Of a stretch of 55,711 nt of DNA, positions 27,739-55,711 are shown piece by piece. The stretch's first letter is position 1; each line of letters starts with the position of its first letter. Under the pieces are notes generated by a model, which was not told where the DNA came from, searched no databases, and saw nothing but the letters and a program-made list of their open reading frames with translations. The stretch comes from a virus (Duplodnaviria; Caudoviricetes), in IMG/VR virus record IMGVR_UViG_3300046822_000225, positions 1-55,711 of that record; one strand, written 5' to 3'. A program made the translations under genes and the position numbers.

Positions 27739-27869
27739 TGCAGGACAACCCGAGCAGCCGCCCGCGTCGCCTGGCAGGCGCGATAGCGCACCTTGCGAGA
27801 ACGCTCACCAAAAACCGCGAGTGGCCGCCTGACCGTGACCTACACTCGACCGCGCTTCCATGGAAGCGT

Positions 27870-27943
27870 CCCCCGGTAGCTCAGCGGATAGAGCACGCCT
27901 TTTGCGAAGGTCGAGGTCGCAGGTTCGAATCCTGCCCGGGGGA
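27870..27943 (+). tRNA. tRNA-Arg-like gene with aberrant anticodon arm (GCG, or TGC in the alternative register)
   Basis: CCCCCGG/CCGGGGG acceptor stem, GCTC-AGCGGATA-GAGC D arm, GCAGG-TTCGAAT-CCTGC T arm; one extra nt in the anticodon/variable region; no CCA. Confidence 0.8.
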
Positions 27944-28049
27944 TTCTCGGCACCTGTTGGACACGCTCGCGGCACCGCCGCTAGCATCCGTGGTCCTTCG
28001 CAAAAGGCGCTGCTGCCGCTGTGCGCAGGATCGGCCTGACGGTCGACAT

Positions 28050-46416: not shown

Positions 46417-47394
46417 CCGGCCTCGCCGCCATCGCGCATCTCGGAGACCTACCTTCGTGGCTGACCTGGGGACAGGCCGCATGGACAGCGGGCGACGCCA
46501 CACCCCTGGAGGCCATCTGGTTCACGGTGGCCTGCTACTGCTGGTGTGGTTGCGTACTCGGCCTGCTCGGCTGGTTGATCGCAGCCGAGGAGCCCGGCGA
46601 GGAGACCCTCGTCATCGTCTTCGTCGGAGCGTTCGTTGGCCTGATGTGGCCGATCGTTCTGGGCGCCGGGATGCTCGCGGCGATCGGTTACGCGATCGTC
46701 GTGCCGCCGCGGGCCGCTCTGGCGCGCCATCGTCGCTCTGTTGGTGCGGCTCGCGCGGCGGCTGACGCGCGCCGCGACCGGATCGCGGAGCTTGAGCGCG
46801 ACCTGGAGATCACATGATGGCGGCCTCGACGATGGGCGGGGAGCGCATCCTGAAGCAGATCCGCGACGGTCTGGTCTCGGAGCTCTCCTGGTTTCAGCGC
46901 CGCAACCTCCTTGACGGCTCGCCGCCGGCGCCGCTGCGCGAGGCGCAGATCCCGGACAGAGATCGGCTGGAGGAGTACGCCACGGCGGTCGCCGTGGTTT
47001 GCGACCTGACCGAGTCGATCCTGAACCTGGAGCAGGCGATCGCGCTCGTCCCGGCGACAGACGATGGCCTGCAGCTCGCGATCGATCGCGCGCTCAGCAT
47101 CCTGGGTGACTCCGAGTGGCTTGACGGCCGCTCGACGGTCGGCACGCGCGCGATCCGCGATGTTCTCGCGCCGTTCGCGTCGAGGCCGTCATGAGCGCGC
47201 TCGTCTGCCCGACGTGCGGTGTGCGCTGGCGGATCGTTGTCGGCACCGACGACATGCAGCGCGCCTGCCCGCTGCACGCGCCCGCAGGCGACCCGCCGGC
47301 GCCGCGCGTTCGCGGCGCCGGCCTGCCTGACCTGCAGCCGCAGATCGCGCACGCTCGCCGCCGCACGGCCACCGAGCAGACAGGCTCGGCATGA
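46413..47394 (+). other. Three small ORFs (46413-46817 membrane protein, 46814-47194, 47191-47394)
   Basis: ATGA overlaps; TM helices in the first. Confidence 0.6.
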
Positions 47395-47771
47395 CGACGG
47401 CCACGCGCGACGCGCCGGTTCAGGCGCCCGACCGCTCGCTGCAGCAGCGCCGGGCCGCGCTGCGCAAGGCCAACGACATACGGGTTGCGCGCGCCGCACT
47501 GAAGCGCAAGCTCAACCACACACGCCGGCCCGATGCGCTGCGCGAGGTCGCGGCGCACATCCTGCAGCCCGACGACACGCTGCTCACGATGAAGGTCGCG
47601 GACCTCCTGATGGCATGCCCATCGGTCGGCGCCTACAGGGTGCATCAGGTCCTGACCAGGGGCCGGATCAGCCCCAACAAGACGATCGGCGGTCTCGCCG
47701 ACGCGCAGCGCAAGTGGCTGGCGTTCGCGCTGTCTCAGATCGCCGGCCGCAGGACGATCGGCTTGCGATGA
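47391..47771 (+). CDS. mihF: Actinobacterial-type integration host factor homologue
   Basis: QR.AAL.KAN.IR..RA.LK..L, MKV.DLL...P.VG, RISP.KTIGGL...QR match mIHF/sIHF signatures. Confidence 0.85.
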   Translation: MTTATRDAPVQAPDRSLQQRRAALRKANDIRVARAALKRKLNHTRRPDALREVAAHILQPDDTLLTMKVADLLMACPSVGAYRVHQVLTRGRISPNKTIGGLADAQRKWLAFALSQIAGRRTIGLR

Positions 47772-48043
47772 GCGGCGCGCCGCTGACGGTCGCCGCGGCC
47801 GCGCAGCTCGCCGGCGTGCACCCCAAGACGATCCGCCGCGCGATCGATCGTGGTGATCTGCGTGCGATGCGCCCGGGCGGCGGGCGCAAGATCGTGGTCC
47901 TCGAGCCGGACCTGGTCGCGTGGCGTGATCAGCCGGTCGTTCCGCGATCGCGCACGGTCGATGTGTCACCGAGGCCTTCCCGCCGGCCGCCGGAGCGGGG
48001 TAGCCTCGCGGCCCTGCGTGCAATGGAGAGGAGCCGACGGTGA
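47768..48043 (+). CDS. xis: Excisionase (HTH_17-like)
   Basis: LTVAAAAQLAGVHPKTIRRAIDRGDLRA; directly upstream of the integrase. Confidence 0.85.
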   Translation: MSGAPLTVAAAAQLAGVHPKTIRRAIDRGDLRAMRPGGGRKIVVLEPDLVAWRDQPVVPRSRTVDVSPRPSRRPPERGSLAALRAMERSRR

Positions 48044-49155
48044 GCGACGGCCGAAAGTCAAACGGTAAGTGGGTGGACCGCTGGCATGAGGGCACGGTGA
48101 AGCGCCAGCGCACGTTTGACCTCAAACGCGACCGTGACACCTTCCGGCGCGAGCGCATCCGCCGCCAGCAGCTCGGCGACGTCGTGATCGTCGCGCGTGA
48201 CGTCACGCTCGCGGTGTTCGTGGAGGAGTGGTGGCAGGAATACGCGCTCGTCGAGCTCGAGCGCAGCACCCGTGCGACCTACGCGCAGACGTGGGAGAAG
48301 CACCTGCGCGCCCGCGTCGGCGGGTTCGCGCTGCGCCAGCTGGACACCGATGTCGTGCTCGACCTGCGCCAGGCGCTCACGAGCGCCGGCGCCGGCGCGC
48401 CGACGATCGCCAAGTCCCTCGTCGTGTTGCAGAGCATCCTGAGCTTCGCGGTGCTGAAGAAGCGCATCGCATTCAACCCGGTCGCGAGGGTCCGCAAGCC
48501 CTCGATCACACCAAGCCGTCAGGTCGCGCCGATCCCGCCCGCGGTTGTCGAAGACCTCCGCGCGCGCCTGAGCGCGCGTGACGCGATGCTCGTGTCCGTG
48601 CTCGCGTACGCCGGCCTGCGGCCGCAGGAAGCGCTCGCGCTGCACGGCGAGGACATCAGCGACCGCAAGATCTTCGTGCACCGCAAGGTCGTCGACGGCG
48701 AGCTGCTCGGCTACACCAAGACCCGCCGCAACCGCTGGGTGCGGCTGCTCGGCCCGCTCGCGCAGGACCTCGCCGAGTACCGCCTCGCGACAGGCCGCCG
48801 CGACGGGCTGCTGTTCCCGCGCGCGGACGGGGAACCGTGGCGCGCACACGACTGGCGCAACTGGCACCGCCGCATCTACCAGCCGAACGCGGCCGCGGTG
48901 GGTCTGATCGGCGCACGCCCGTACGACCTGCGCGGCTCGTTCGTGTCGCTGCTGATCTGGGAGGGACAGACGATCGTGGAGGTCGCCAGGCAGGCCGGCC
49001 ACAGCGTCGCGACGTCTGACCGGCACTATGCGAGGATGTTCGAGGACTTCGATCCGGACGCCCGGCAGTCGGCCGAAGACGCGATCCGAGCAGCCCGCCA
49101 ACCTGGTGGACGCGGAATGGACGCGCTCTTCGACCTGGAGGTCGGCCGGTCGTGA
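48040..49155 (+). CDS. int: Tyrosine integrase
   Basis: AGLRPQEALAL (R), TKT (K), YDLR, AGHS, HY catalytic residues. Confidence 0.95.
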   Translation: MSDGRKSNGKWVDRWHEGTVKRQRTFDLKRDRDTFRRERIRRQQLGDVVIVARDVTLAVFVEEWWQEYALVELERSTRATYAQTWEKHLRARVGGFALRQLDTDVVLDLRQALTSAGAGAPTIAKSLVVLQSILSFAVLKKRIAFNPVARVRKPSITPSRQVAPIPPAVVEDLRARLSARDAMLVSVLAYAGLRPQEALALHGEDISDRKIFVHRKVVDGELLGYTKTRRNRWVRLLGPLAQDLAEYRLATGRRDGLLFPRADGEPWRAHDWRNWHRRIYQPNAAAVGLIGARPYDLRGSFVSLLIWEGQTIVEVARQAGHSVATSDRHYARMFEDFDPDARQSAEDAIRAARQPGGRGMDALFDLEVGRS

Positions 49156-49478
49156 TCACGAGCCCACGAAATCCCTGCAAAGATGCAGGACACGCCCTCC
49201 TAGCTCAGTTGGTAGAGCACTTCCATGGTAAGGAGGTGCAGGGTGTCCACGCAGGGCCTTCCCAGTCATCGGGAGCCGCGAAAACACCTGCTCACGCCCC
49301 TGAAACGAGTGGACACCGAGACGCCGCCGGGCGCCCGCTGACCGGTCCTGACGGACGCGCAAAGGACGCGCTGACCGCAGCTCCCAACCCACGGGTTATG
49401 CGATACATGCAGAGCGACGCTCGGGCCCGCAACATTCGAGATCGACGCGCGGGCGAGACGGACGCGCAAAGGACACAC
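49108..49478 (+). other. attP: core 49194-49236 with tandem arm-type repeats at 49108-49126, 49353-49371 and 49460-49478
   Basis: GGACGCG-N4-GGAC(G/A)C pairs on both sides of a tRNA fragment next to int. Confidence 0.8.
49194..49236 (+). tRNA. 5' half of tRNA-Thr(GGT); truncated, probable att core
   Basis: GCCCTCC TA GCTC AGTTGGTA GAGC A CTTCC ATGGTAA GGAGG, with no T arm or 3' acceptor strand. Confidence 0.88.
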
Positions 49479-49757
49479 ATGACCTCCGCGCGATCGGGCG
49501 CCGCCGTCGGACAAGGCCTCGGGGTAGCCCATGAGCTCGCGGCGACCGCGACCACTGAGCACATGCTCGCGATGGAGGCCGCGCAAACCGCCCTGTTTCA
49601 TGCGATCAAGGCGGGGGGGAGGCGCTCATCGCGGCACGCCAGCACATTTCACCGGCTGACTGGACGGACTGGTTGAAGAGCAACTTTGGATCCTTGGTTT
49701 CAGACGGCACATACCCACATCCGGTTGGCTACCTATCAGGAACTGCTATCGCTGAAT

Positions 49758-50222
49758 ATGTCGATGGCCCGCGCGAAGCAGGAGCTGTTCGGCTTACCCC
49801 GCGTTGTGCATCCCAGCGCAACCCGAGTTCGGACCTACGACCAGCACACGCGCGCGTCAGCCTTGGAGCTTCGCTCAGGAGGCCTTGCGATCGGCGAGAT
49901 CGCGGAAACGTTGAGCATTCCACCTCAGACAATCAGAAACTGGGTGCTCGATCCTGAGACGAAAGCCCCAAGAGCAGCGTTCACGCTCGCTGTCGAGGCG
50001 CATGCAGAAGGCAAAGGATCAGGAGCGCCTGAGGGAACTCAGGACAGAACGGGCTCAGCGGGGCTGCCGATCGGCAAGCGGGCAAAGCAATCGCCGAAAG
50101 CTACGCCTCGGTTCGGAAACTGGCGCAGGCTCTCGACAAGGCTCACTCGCAAGCTCAGAGCAACGCTCACAGGACCCGTCTTAGCGACGCCCTATCAAGG
50201 GCCTACGCGATCGAGGACATAA
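49758..50222 (+). CDS. HTH protein in a lower-GC patch; start uncertain
   Basis: ALELRSGGLAIGEIAETLSIPPQTIRNWV. Confidence 0.5.
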   Translation: MSMARAKQELFGLPRVVHPSATRVRTYDQHTRASALELRSGGLAIGEIAETLSIPPQTIRNWVLDPETKAPRAAFTLAVEAHAEGKGSGAPEGTQDRTGSAGLPIGKRAKQSPKATPRFGNWRRLSTRLTRKLRATLTGPVLATPYQGPTRSRT

Positions 50223-50269
50223 TTCAATTTTGCCTTGGCGTCGACGACTCGTGAGCAGGCTCGATCTCA

Positions 50270-50891
50270 CGATGCTTGCGCCGTGTCGCCATCGCGGCGG
50301 ACAAGGGCGGGCGCCCGTGGTTGTGGCTCGCGAGCGAGGCCGCCGATCACGGCGGCTATCCGCAGCACGTCCTTGCGCGAAGGCGATGTCGGACTGATCT
50401 GCGAGACCTACGACGAGCCCCCCGACCATCCGGCGATCACGCCCGAGTTCATCGCGACGTTCGACCCGCCGACCGTTCTCGCGCTGCTCGATCTTTGTTA
50501 GGTCGCGCCAGGAGGTCGCCGACGTGCGTGACGAGGCCGAGCGCCTGCGCGCGGCGTTGTGCGATCTGCTCGGCAACTCAGAGTTGCCGGTGCGACCGCC
50601 CGCTCGTCGTCGAGCCGTGCTCGAAATGTCGATGCACGCGCGTCCTGGATACGTGACCTTCTCGACCGTGTTCGCTCAGGGATGGGAAGCGGCCGGCCGG
50701 GACCTGCCGGAGCCCGACATCTCTCACGGGCAATGCAGGCATGGCCGATTGACCTCGCCGACGCCCCGCCAGGACTGCGAAGACCGCGGGCCTGTCGATC
50801 ACGGAAGATCGCCGAGCTCGCGGGCGTGACGCGCCAGACCCCCGTCTACACGGCGCTGATCGGCCGCGAGCGCCTGATCGCCGGCGAATAG
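50270..50891 (+). pseudogene. Fragmented Ead/Ea22-like and HTH remnants
   Basis: FIATFDPPTVLALLD and IAELAGVTRQT motifs in broken frames. Confidence 0.5.
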
Positions 50892-50938
50892 ACCGGGGAC
50901 GCGATACTCGACACCCTCGTCGCCAACCATCCCCCCGA

Positions 50939-51580
50939 TCACCGGCGACTGTTGACCTTGAGGTCTGCGCGTGCGAGGACGTAACGCACGCTCGAGCGCG
51001 CGATGTTGAGGCGCACGGCGATCTCGCGGGTGCTGAGGTGGCGCCGGTAGAGGCGCAGGATCTCGGCGTTGCGTTGCTCGAGCGGGAGCTCCTTGCCGTT
51101 CTGGGGGGGCTCGCCGAACTCGATGTCGCGGCCGGCAGCTTCGCGGGCGCGCCAGATGTCGGTGACGCCGCAACGGAAGGCGTTGGCGACATCGCGAGCG
51201 CTGAAGCCCTTGCCCTCCTTGATGATGCGCTCGTCGCGGTCGGCCTTGGACTCGACTTTGGTGCGGTCCGCGGATGACCGGCGGATGTGCTCGAGCATCG
51301 CGACCGCCTCCTCGAGCACGCGCTGGCGCTCGCCAACGTCGCCGGCGAGATCCCAGAGGTCGGCGTAGAGCAGGTGAGGCGCGTCTCCGCGCGCGAGCTT
51401 CGCGCGGCCGCGATCGTCGACGAGGGTGTAGTCGGGGGTGCCGCCGCCGTTGGCGTCGTAGGCGCTGATCCGCGCGTTGCTGGTGAGCGCCAGGGCCAAC
51501 AGCACGTCACGCATGCGTGTCTCGAGCTCGTCCAAGGCGGTATTGACCCGCTGGTGACGGTACCAACGAACGGCCACCAA
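50939..51580 (-). CDS. Protein with two HTH motifs (possible transcription regulator); start uncertain
   Basis: SARDVANAFRCGVTDIWRAR and STREIAVRLNIARSSVRYVL. Confidence 0.75.
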   Translation of the reverse strand: MVAVRWYRHQRVNTALDELETRMRDVLLALALTSNARISAYDANGGGTPDYTLVDDRGRAKLARGDAPHLLYADLWDLAGDVGERQRVLEEAVAMLEHIRRSSADRTKVESKADRDERIIKEGKGFSARDVANAFRCGVTDIWRAREAAGRDIEFGEPPQNGKELPLEQRNAEILRLYRRHLSTREIAVRLNIARSSVRYVLARADLKVNSRR

Positions 51581-51663
51581 CTCTAAACCCGTGGTTGAGA
51601 GTTGGTACGTTGTGGCCCATCGGCGCCCAAGGCCCCTGCCCGCGGCGCCTCGCTACCCGGCCG

Positions 51664-52863
51664 ATGCCAGACCTCTGCGAGCCGGAGGCGCAGCAACCGC
51701 ATCGCCTTGACGCCGCAGAGCGCTTCCGCCTGGTGCGGGCGCTGTGGCGCATGGGCCTGTGGCCGCTGCGCCTTCCCGGCGTCACCCACGACAGCCCGTT
51801 GTGCCAGGGCTACGCGAACGGCTGCATGTGCGCGCACTGCGACGCGCGGGAGCACCCGACGCCGGCGCCGCCGGCGGCCAGGCAGCCATGGGAAGCGCAG
51901 TGACCGAGGAGGTAGAGCCTGTGACGCTCGACATTAACACGCCTGCCGGTGAGCCGCCGCGCGCGCTGCTGGATGATGCGCTGCGCGAGCTGCTCGGGCA
52001 GGTGACGATCACCGCGTCGATGAGTCAGCGCCCGCCGCAGCTGTGGCCGTCCATCACGCAGGCGCGGATCGCGCAGGAGATGGACGACGTCGAGGACACC
52101 GTCCGCGCGTTGCGCAACGTCGCGCACGCGGCGATCGCGAGCATCGTGCGTGTCCGCGCGGCGGCCGAGCCGACATGAGCGAGCGCAAGCTATCCGCCGC
52201 GCAGGCGATGGCCTGGGCGACCGCCGAAGTCACCGCGCTGCAGATCAAGGCGACGCTGGACGCGGCCAAGAAGCGATGCGACGAGCTGCGTGCCCGCTAT
52301 GAGTCGCGCCTGCAGCCCAGCACCGACCCCGACGACGTCGACAAGGACGTCAAGGTCGCGACCGCCGGCGGCTGGTCGATCCGTCGCACGCGCTTCACCG
52401 GCGGCGAGCGCTTCTCGCTCACCGGCTACGTCAAGGCCGGCCACGACATCACGCCCGAGATGTCAGCGCACATCAGCGCCGGGAGCCCGCAGGTCCGCGT
52501 CACCGTCAAGCGCGTCGCCGGCCCGACCAAGCCCGGCGCCGTCGAGCGCACCTCGTGAAGCCGGTCAAGCACGCGGGCTCCGACGTCTGTTACCGCGGAC
52601 CATCGCCGGACATCGGCGATCTGTGGTGCATGCGCGAACGGCCCGGTCTGATCAACGTGGTCTACGAACTCGACGATGCCGAGCGCGCGCAGATCGCCGC
52701 CGGCGGGCGCATCATGCTCGGCGTCTGGAACGAGCCGATACCGCCGCTCTCGATGCGGATCCTCGACGAGCGGCAGTGCCGCCCTGTCGATGAGCACCCA
52801 TGGAAGGTTGGTGGTGCTGGCGGCCATGTGATCGCCGAGCTTGAGGACCCCGAGCGGTCCTGA
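51664..52863 (+). other. Four small hypothetical ORFs (51664-51903, 51900-52178, 52175-52558, 52555-52863)
   Basis: Translational coupling. Confidence 0.6.
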
Positions 52864-53819: not shown

Positions 53820-53892
53820 AGCGGCTGAAGGGTCTCGAACCCTCGACCTCGACGTTGGCAACGTCGCGCTCTTCCAGCTGAGCTACAGCCGC
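53820..53892 (-). tRNA. tRNA-Gly(GCC), full length, no encoded CCA
   Basis: Reverse complement GCGGCTG TA GCTC AGCTGGAA GAGC G CGACG TTGCCAA CGTCG AGGTC GAGGG TTCGAGA CCCTT CAGCCGC T. Confidence 0.93.
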
Positions 53893-54038: not shown

Positions 54039-54263
54039 TCAGGGCCTCACCGTCCGGCCCAGCACACCACCGGTCGCGCCAGCCGCCCGATTCGCCAGCG
54101 CATCCAAACGGGCCGTGACGAACGCGTAGGACCCCGATCCCTGGCCGTTGAGGATCGCCAACAGCCGATGACGCTCCGCACGGCACGGCGCCGAGCAGCA
54201 CAGCGCGTCCGCTCGCATCCCATCCAGCGACCGGCCGTCGATCACGCAGCGCCGCTCATCCAT
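54039..54263 (-). CDS. Small Cys-motif protein
   Basis: RC..DG....MRADALCCSAPCR; same strand as tRNA-Gly. Confidence 0.55.
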   Translation of the reverse strand: MDERRCVIDGRSLDGMRADALCCSAPCRAERHRLLAILNGQGSGSYAFVTARLDALANRAAGATGGVLGRTVRP

Positions 54264-54981
54264 GGATCCATCGATCTCAGCCACCACGCGGATGATCGCC
54301 TACCTCCGCGTCAGCACCGACGAGCAGGCGATGAGCGGCCTCGGCATGGAAGGACAGCAGGAAGCGCTGCGCAGGGCGTTCGCCTACCGCGGCTGGGAGC
54401 TCGTCGACACCGTCCGCGACGACGGCGTCACCGGCAGCACGCTGCAGCGGCCCGGGCTGCAGCGTGCCCTGCGCCTGATCGCTGCCGGCGCCGCGGACGG
54501 CCTGGTCGTCGCCAAGCTCGACCGCCTCACCCGATCGATGCGCGACTTCTGCGAGCTGATCGACTGGTTCGAAGACGCCCGCAGCGCCCTCGCGATGCTC
54601 GAGCCCGACGTCGACACGTCCACGCCCGCCGGCCGCGCAGTCGCGCACGTGATGGTCGCCTTCGCAGAGATGGAGCGCGGCATGATCGCCGCGCGCACCA
54701 AGACCGCGCTGCAAGCCAAGCGCGCCCGCGGCGAGTCGATCGGGCGTCCGGCGATCGCCGACCGCCCCGAGCTCGCGCAGCGCATCCGCCACATGCGGGA
54801 GGTGCAGGACATGACGTTCCAGGCGATCGCCGACCGTCTCAGCAGCGAGCGCGTGCCGACCGCGCGCGGCGCGGCCACCTGGCGGCCCAGCAGCGTGCAG
54901 GCCGCCGCCGGCTACCGCCGGCCGCCCGCGCCGCGCCGACGGGCCGCGCTGCCACCGATCCCACGCGCGGGCGCCCGCTGA
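54262..54981 (+). CDS. Serine recombinase (resolvase/invertase family); alternative start 54292
   Basis: YLRVST (catalytic Ser), RPGL, KLDRLTRS, AEMER..I..RT; short C-terminal IADRL..PTARG..W DNA-binding domain. Confidence 0.93.
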   Translation: MDPSISATTRMIAYLRVSTDEQAMSGLGMEGQQEALRRAFAYRGWELVDTVRDDGVTGSTLQRPGLQRALRLIAAGAADGLVVAKLDRLTRSMRDFCELIDWFEDARSALAMLEPDVDTSTPAGRAVAHVMVAFAEMERGMIAARTKTALQAKRARGESIGRPAIADRPELAQRIRHMREVQDMTFQAIADRLSSERVPTARGAATWRPSSVQAAAGYRRPPAPRRRAALPPIPRAGAR

Positions 54982-55393: not shown

Positions 55394-55665
55394 GCGTGCG
55401 GCTGCGTACCCGGATCGTCAACGGCCGCGCGGTCGCGACGTCGGCGGACGTCAGGGCGCACCCGCGCGGGCGCGCGTACGAGCGCGTGCGCCTAGCCGTG
55501 GCCGAGCGCGACGCCTGGATCTGCCAGCTCTGCGGCCAGCCGATCGACCGCCGGCTGCGGCGCCCTGACCCGATGGCGCTGTCTGTCCACCACGTGATCG
55601 AATTCGCCGCAGGCGGCTCGCATGCCATGTCCAACTTGCAGGCCGCGCACGACATCTGCCATTGA
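55390..55665 (+). CDS. HNH endonuclease (terminase-associated, HK97 gp74-like)
   Basis: RD.W.CQLCG..HHVI....GGS..SNLQAAH..CH; last gene before the genome end. Confidence 0.88.
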   Translation: MSVRLRTRIVNGRAVATSADVRAHPRGRAYERVRLAVAERDAWICQLCGQPIDRRLRRPDPMALSVHHVIEFAAGGSHAMSNLQAAHDICH

Positions 55666-55711
55666 CGTAGGGGGGCGGGTCACAGGGCCCTGCCCGACCG
55701 TCAGCGGCGAC

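Follow-up and report, generated by a model that had tools for sequence, protein, structure and literature searches.

Does a phage that carries the 5′ part of a host tRNA gene behind its integrase gene use that part to integrate, and what would then become of the tRNA? Attachment sites in tRNA genes were reportedly classified by Williams in 2002, in a scheme that includes crossover in the anticodon loop. Among actinobacteriophage tyrosine integrases, anticodon-loop crossover and a carried 3′ part are usual, according to PMC10865867. The phage record described here has a 5′ part of tRNA-Thr(GGU), which the preliminary description took to be the attP core of the adjacent integrase.

The DNA analyzed, called the window, spans a virus record in its entirety, 55,711 bp on a single contig (G+C about 69%). 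Among its gene products are a terminase large subunit, portal, head protease, major head protein and a 1,760-aa tape measure, as well as two DNA methyltransferases (phrog and Pfam matches). The TerS match at the left end is weak (21.3 bits, under the cut-off), with TerL next to it. An HNH-type gene lies at the right end (55400–55711) and TerS/TerL at the left (1–2233), and no terminal repeat was found in the record, which suggests that the record ends are cos ends; we take the record for the non-integrated form of a phage with a linear, cos-type genome. ARAGORN found tRNA-Ala(UGC) at 27869–27944 and tRNA-Gly(GCC) at 53820–53892 (minus strand) as the only phage tRNAs, and no whole tRNA-Thr in the record. 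Close to the tRNA-Gly, a small serine recombinase of 239 aa (54262–54981) has a resolvase N-terminal domain; it was rejected as the integrase, being of the resolvase/invertase type without the large C-terminal domain (phrog, Pfam).

A tRNA-Thr part next to the integrase gene

The features of the int region are as follows.

47771–48043, plus strand: excisionase/recombination directionality factor, HTH_17 (phrog_66, E 3.7e-6; Pfam HTH_17, E 3.5e-10)
48001–48006, plus strand: TAGCCT, a putative −10 element of int, 34 nt ahead of the int start codon
48040–49155, plus strand: tyrosine integrase, 371 aa (phrog_1, E 5.4e-44; PF00589, 33.2 bits, cut-off 27.1), stop codon at 49153–49155
49108–49126, plus strand: P-arm pair of arm-type repeats, GGACGCG gaat GGACGCGC, within the int 3′ coding end
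49165–49189, plus strand: P-side proximal motif CACGAAATCCCTGCAAAG, with the hairpin CCTGCA-aaga-TGCAGG (49174–49189)
49194–49236, plus strand: tRNA-Thr(GGU) positions 1–43, of which positions 1–41 (49194–49234) equal the host gene
49217–49239, plus strand: core dyad GCACTTCC / GGAGGTGC around ATGGTAA (from sequence and fold)
49280–49291, plus strand: P′-side copy of the GAAAnnCCTGC motif
49353–49371, plus strand: P′-arm pair of arm-type repeats, GGACGCGC aaa GGACGCGC
49460–49476, plus strand: second P′-arm pair, GGACGCGC aaa GGACAC

We found that the 43-mer at 49194–49236 occurs once in the window and was matched in 0 of 100 shuffles. It comprises the acceptor 5′ strand, the D arm and the anticodon arm, with the anticodon GGT at 49227–49229, and it begins 38 nt past the int stop on the same strand. 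The preliminary description was thus right about the 43-nt 5′ part, its distance from int and the CCTGCA/TGCAGG hairpin ahead of it. The Rfam tRNA model aligned to 49194–49258 without a T arm, at 25.8 bits, short of the gathering score of 29.

Comparison of the 43-mer with actinobacterial genomes, a check proposed in that description, used the 21 tRNA-Thr(GGU) genes among loci L001–L080. In six Thermoleophilia loci (L036, L046, L049, L050, L055 and L058), tRNA-Thr(GGU) has the same positions 1–41 (41/41); position 42 is G in the window and A in the host, position 43 matches, and there is no similarity beyond. The tRNA block in the candidate attP covers 41 nt and ends at the anticodon arm. Four of the five matching genomes searched have tRNA-Thr(GGU) in single copy, and G006 has two identical copies. 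These tRNA identities support the actinobacterial host that had been claimed, from the Thermoleophilia (some matching genomes are Solirubrobacterales). Searching a phage collection with the DNA of 47000–50500 returned only two Listeria phage records, which match 34 nt of the tRNA, and the 41-mer had no exact match in viral contigs.

The loop ATGGTAA (49225–49231) is the anticodon loop and a candidate 7-nt overlap, within which crossover would take place. The dyad around it has 8 bp, is paired in the computed fold and lengthens the anticodon stem by three non-tRNA bases. The arm-type repeat GGACGCGC occurs 14 times in the record, counting both strands, and the shuffle mean is higher (22); four of the 14 copies lie inside 49119–49467, a 350-nt stretch, all of them on the plus strand. 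TGCAGG flanks the tRNA block on both sides (TGCAGGACAC before it at 49184–49193, TGCAGGGTGTCC after it at 49237–49249), and GGACAC and GTGTCC form an inverted pair around the block. These flanks may be further Int sites or a trace of the block having been swapped in.

The integrase family and its two reversed members

Scoring 8,000 candidates in a protein database gave 1,665 relatives of the integrase at E ≤ 0.001, the closest at 76–88% identity; the few named ones are Solirubrobacteraceae, Actinomycetota or Mycobacterium sp. MAG proteins. An alignment of 35 Int relatives (A1) then served as the query against genomes and metagenome contigs, and we examined the best 80 of 389 relatives in species-representative genomes and the best 80 of 481 in metagenome contigs (160 loci). 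Taxon labels of the representative-genome relatives are Solirubrobacterales, Solirubrobacteraceae, Gaiellales, Gaiellaceae, Baekduia and Thermoleophilia, with others unspecific (Actinomycetes, Actinomycetota, 'bacterium'). The catalytic tyrosine codon, which is that of Tyr330 in the window (49027–49029), was mapped in 158 of the 160 loci and aligns with Tyr across all 158; up to 700 nt downstream of it were examined.

A tRNA or tRNA part lies downstream of int in 108 loci, and in 107 of these it is on the opposite strand with its 3′ end facing int, the canonical arrangement. From the Tyr codon, the middle anticodon base is 184–214 nt away in 91 of the 107 opposite-strand relatives; one of the 107 rows, L065 (408 nt), had the neighboring tRNA-Tyr taken as best match, and its tRNA-Thr is closer. 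When all ARAGORN tRNAs were compared with the 160 loci by BLAST, 54 partial matches remained once whole tRNA genes were set aside, most of which extend from about position 27–33 through the 3′ end. Hence, crossover in this family is in the anticodon loop and the 3′ part is carried. No 5′ part was present among the 54 partial matches (0/54): positions 1–9 are in none, and the three that begin at positions 10–18 are cut by a contig end. 

The attP plan is also regular. By eye, eleven canonical elements with both ends in the locus have a tandem pair of a 7–8-nt motif about 80–100 nt past the Tyr codon, within the int coding end, and the pair is repeated about 105–135 nt past the far-end fragment. 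Also by eye, this arm motif varies between elements, and the int side of L104 has only one clear copy. A GAAAnCCCTGCAAA-like motif is found 10–13 nt ahead of the tRNA block in many relatives, in both orientations, and the GAAAnnCCTGC motif occurs in canonical relatives about 45–60 nt into P′ (by eye).

Against this background, the tRNA is co-oriented with int in only 2 of 109 cases (108 loci plus the window). One is the window, with 201 nt between its anticodon and the catalytic-Tyr codon, a distance within the family range, and the other is L051, with tRNA-Val(GAC) at 195 nt; L051 has an arm-type pair of its own motif at the same two positions as the canonical elements (by eye). We built an Int tree (IQ-TREE quick, 149 rows; loci with a stop in the match region or fewer than 300 residues dropped), in which the window belongs to a 9-row Int clade (SH-aLRT 100) whose other members are canonical wherever tellable, and L051 belongs to a 17-row tRNA-Val(GAC) Int clade (SH-aLRT 100), beside the canonical L023. 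The two Ints share 44% identity. Since the window and L051 lie in separate canonical Int clades, the two flips look independent, as judged from the tree.

Other tRNA placements occur in the family. A third one, which also belongs to the 3′ type, has the tRNA or its 3′ part upstream of int on the same strand, 446–621 nt before the int match (L036, L046, L049, L055, L058, L006, L012, L018, L025, L028, L043, L097, L098, L155 and L156); the loci of this group that have a tree row form one 17-row Int clade (SH-aLRT 99), and a 3′ fragment lies kilobases downstream of int in L006, L036, L049, L055 and L058. Two or three successive 3′ fragments follow one tRNA gene in L132, L141, L086, G003:C12:78489-89647 and G001:C2:243959-265878, a pattern that points to canonical insertions having occurred repeatedly or in tandem at a single tRNA. 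Depending on the genome, tRNA-Tyr and tRNA-Thr(GGU) are about 130 nt to more than 6 kb apart (e.g. L065 versus L021, L029 and L082), and no tRNA-Thr 5′ fragments were found in these gaps.

The reversed L051 element (L051/L162) is integrated in genome G001. Contig C6 has the intact int, followed by a whole, single-copy tRNA-Val(GAC). Contig C3 has a 48-nt match that covers tRNA-Val positions 1–44; this 5′ fragment adjoins a divergent host tRNA-Cys and is downstream of a host-type TACGCT element. The 18-mer GGGACGCAAATCGGACGC, an arm-type pair, lies about 115 nt past the C3 fragment and again in the 3′ end of the C6 int, and it has only three occurrences in the 2.9-Mb G001 genome. G001 is a MAG with the two ends of the element on different contigs; a 516-aa IS transposase is near the element end on each contig, which may explain the separation of the ends. 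Read from its sequence, G001 displays the predicted lysogen form, with a 5′ fragment at the host promoter and int plus a whole tRNA-Val at the other end. The element shares with the window its integrase family, its attP plan and a tRNA co-oriented with int; it differs in Int clade, in tRNA target and in encoding a TrwC relaxase, and it is a mobilisable element, not a phage.

Between the third copy of the 18-mer and the upstream region of a whole tRNA-Asp(GTC) are 34 nt, the spacing also seen on C6. There (G001:C2:275312-275462; L165/L172), the whole and apparently single-copy tRNA-Asp comes right after an arm-type pair. It is co-oriented with a frameshifted int remnant (residues about 185–345, 66% identical to the L051 Int). 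A tRNA-Asp 5′ fragment to go with this remnant was not found in G001. The site looks like a decayed second flipped insertion, to judge by these remains, with its far end gone.

Our main reading is that 49108–49476 serves the phage's lambda-like tyrosine integrase as its working attP and has its tRNA target reversed relative to the family plan; we give this a probability of roughly 0.8. The stretch is a candidate attP of the adjacent int, as the preliminary description claimed, because it combines the spacing typical of the family, matching arm-type repeats on both sides of the tRNA part and the lysogen layout of the relative in G001.

The join at the tRNA and other explanations

Neither the window phage nor a close relative was found as a lysogen in species-representative genomes, metagenome contigs or 401 Thermoleophilia genomes. 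In the species-representative genomes the top Int (L001) has 66% identity and a canonical arrangement, and the alignment scan of metagenome contigs reached 61% at most; scanning the metagenome contigs with the single protein gave no match, and neither the single protein nor alignment A1 had a match in viral contigs. In the sample of 401 Thermoleophilia genomes, the pattern CCTGCAA followed by 6–24 nt and the start of tRNA-Thr(GGU) is absent. The layout foreseen for lysogens, int followed by a full tRNA, was thus found for the tRNA-Val relative in G001 and not for a tRNA-Thr lysogen of the window phage.

Two explanations other than a working attP keep a small and about equal probability. The first is an assembly artefact, in which pieces were joined via tRNA-Thr k-mers common to other DNA, or attL and attR of an integrated prophage were merged into a spurious attP. 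In the likely source run, Logan contigs do stop and start within the tRNA stretch (one ends at 49230 and another begins at 49205), and many other tRNA-Thr contigs pile up there (bin depth 195 versus about 12 alongside). No contig bridging 49205–49230 was found among the Logan contigs of this run, which neither confirm nor refute the join; runs X2–X4 yielded only contigs of the tRNA stretch and scattered int-like pieces. The loose contig ends at the tRNA stretch belong to tRNA-Thr genes of other organisms. However, the depths of the two flanks are equal (11.7 and 12.2), and both flanks have the same arm motif. Since this motif varies between family elements, its identity on both sides of the fragment counts against a chimeric join at the tRNA. 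In addition, the attP is internal to the record and no host genes are present from TerS/TerL through HNH. Even a collapsed attL/attR needs int followed by a tRNA 5′ part on the same strand, which is itself the reversed geometry. We consider an artefact improbable.

The second explanation, a dead relic, is just as improbable. On this view, the tRNA part is left over from a phage tRNA gene that decayed or from an att site that fell out of use, and integration at this place is lost. The lack of a lysogen in the three collections named above is in line with this, as is the 1.7 kb without coding signal to the right of the tRNA part. In contrast, Int, Xis, the arm pairs and the core dyad are all intact, the 41/41 identity with the host stops exactly at the anticodon arm, and the spacing is that of the family.

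In tRNA-dependent lysogeny, known among actinobacteriophages, the common core is short (about 10 bp) and the host tRNA is not rebuilt (PMC10865867); integration would be disruptive and a phage tRNA would substitute. The phage does have two tRNA genes, but they are Ala(UGC) and Gly(GCC) and not Thr, and the common block, at 41 nt versus about 10, would restore the gene exactly, so that we regard this explanation as very improbable. Least probable of all is a T-arm-less tRNA-like RNA (49194–49258) made by the phage itself: the Rfam tRNA model does align end to end and GCAGGGC (49251–49257) pairs with the acceptor 5′ strand at 6 of 7 positions, but the score of 25.8 is below the family threshold of 29, the free-energy fold lacks that acceptor stem, and the flipped tRNA-Val element has no such complement past its fragment.

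Proposed integration, expression of the tRNA and implications

On the reading of 49108–49476 as a working attP, crossover would occur in the 7-nt anticodon loop of the host tRNA-Thr(GGU), between near-palindromic stem halves. The halves of the anticodon stem would serve as core-type sites that are alike in both orientations, and the loop, as the sole asymmetric part, would set the pairing of attP with attB. Because the loop sequence would fix this alignment, the window phage would insert the opposite way relative to the tRNA gene. The 40-odd nt that separate int from the crossover hold the tRNA 3′ part in reverse complement in the relatives and the tRNA 5′ part, in the int direction, in the window; with the loop reversed relative to the arms, survival of the tRNA would require the 5′ part as the int-proximal homology. 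The predicted order in a lysogen is host promoter, tRNA positions 1 to about 38, P′ arm, phage, xis, int, rebuilt tRNA-Thr and host terminator. The rebuilt tRNA-Thr would be wild type in hosts with a GCCCTCC acceptor strand. The mismatch at position 42, on the side that would never join the rebuilt gene, agrees with a crossover no later than position 41.

The window resembles the canonical Int-Y attP of actinobacteriophages, as laid out in PMC10865867, in its arm-binding integrase with adjacent Xis, in arm-type pairs that flank a tRNA-shared core of about 40 nt, in the dyad at the anticodon loop and in a tRNA that would be rebuilt. Canonical sites carry about position 32 to the 3′ end on the opposite strand, whereas the window carries tRNA positions 1–41 on the int strand; as a result, rebuilding would leave the gene with the host terminator but cut off from the host promoter.

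A TAnnnT hexamer ends 8–22 nt before the gene in 106 of 121 distinct tRNA upstream regions in the loci, and it ends 9 nt before the phage tRNA-Gly and 23 nt before the phage tRNA-Ala. We found no TAnnnT in the 250 nt upstream of 49194, and a sigma-70 scan of 48700–49700 gave no site. The nearest plus-strand TAnnnT is the TAGCCT at 48001–48006, one of only 15 on the plus strand of the record. With no −10-like element in those 250 nt, transcription with int would be the likeliest source of the rebuilt tRNA-Thr, which RNase P would most likely release. As the preliminary description proposed, the host tRNA would plausibly become dependent on prophage transcription. The decayed int before the G001 tRNA-Asp hints that an intact int is not needed, which makes an unrecognised promoter in the P arm possible.

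The 1.7 kb to the right of the attP (49237–50938) have third-position G+C of at most 0.76 in every frame versus about 0.9 in int, an overall G+C of 0.64–0.66, below that of the record, and ORFs without a Pfam match except for a weak HTH. The stretch may be non-coding or decayed, or may have been acquired recently; in a lysogen, it would directly adjoin the orphaned host tRNA promoter, downstream of it. Farther right, between a minus-strand HTH gene (50939–51580) and a plus-strand gene (51595–51903), 51562–51611 has TAnnnT on both strands and looks like a divergent immunity switch of the repressor/cro type.

A bolder idea, which we hold only tentatively and think rather unlikely, is that integration swaps two promoters: tRNA-Thr(GGU) would pass to the tail of the int transcript, and the orphaned host promoter at attL would pass to the P′ side. 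If so, this promoter would fire into 49237 onward, across 1.7 kb without coding signal and then the immunity region. Translation in the lysogen would hinge on transcription of the prophage, and integration would be a precondition for expressing part of the prophage. At stake would be the sole tRNA-Thr(GGU) of the host, which serves the main Thr codon in a genome with 70% G+C. Given the palindromic anticodon stem, flips would be easy and recurrent in the evolution of one integrase family.

The arrangement of the window attP is real and rare, and it is of an already known kind. The novelty that the preliminary description implied for the 5′ half stands as rarity within the family (2/109) and falls as a first case, since integration with a 5′ half and expression of the tRNA from the integrase promoter are already in print (PMC8371274 and PMC6563490). 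A bacterial element in reversed orientation is credited to Zhao and Williams 2002, as cited by later papers. PMC8371274 reports integrase-promoter expression of the rebuilt tRNA for archaeal pTN3-like elements and calls it 'seldomly encountered in bacteria'. In these reversed elements the rebuilt tRNA lies behind the integrase gene, as it would in a lysogen of the window phage. The pTN3-like integrases are described there as 'suicidal', with attP within int, whereas the lambda-like Int of the window would stay unsplit on integration. The window also differs from the reversed elements as a tailed temperate phage of Thermoleophilia whose integrase family is otherwise canonical.

What is new here is the contrast within one family, 107 canonical relatives versus two flipped elements, with attP plan and spacing constant; so are the two apparently independent flips and the tailed Thermoleophilia phage as carrier. 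The contrast of 107 with two supports the view that the integrase reads a symmetric anticodon stem-loop, and that the loop and the adjoining homology alone set the orientation. Prophage-boundary software that expects a 3′ fragment as the direct repeat would misplace the ends of such prophages. The window offers a case from a bacterial phage for studying the expression of an essential single-copy tRNA after separation from its promoter.
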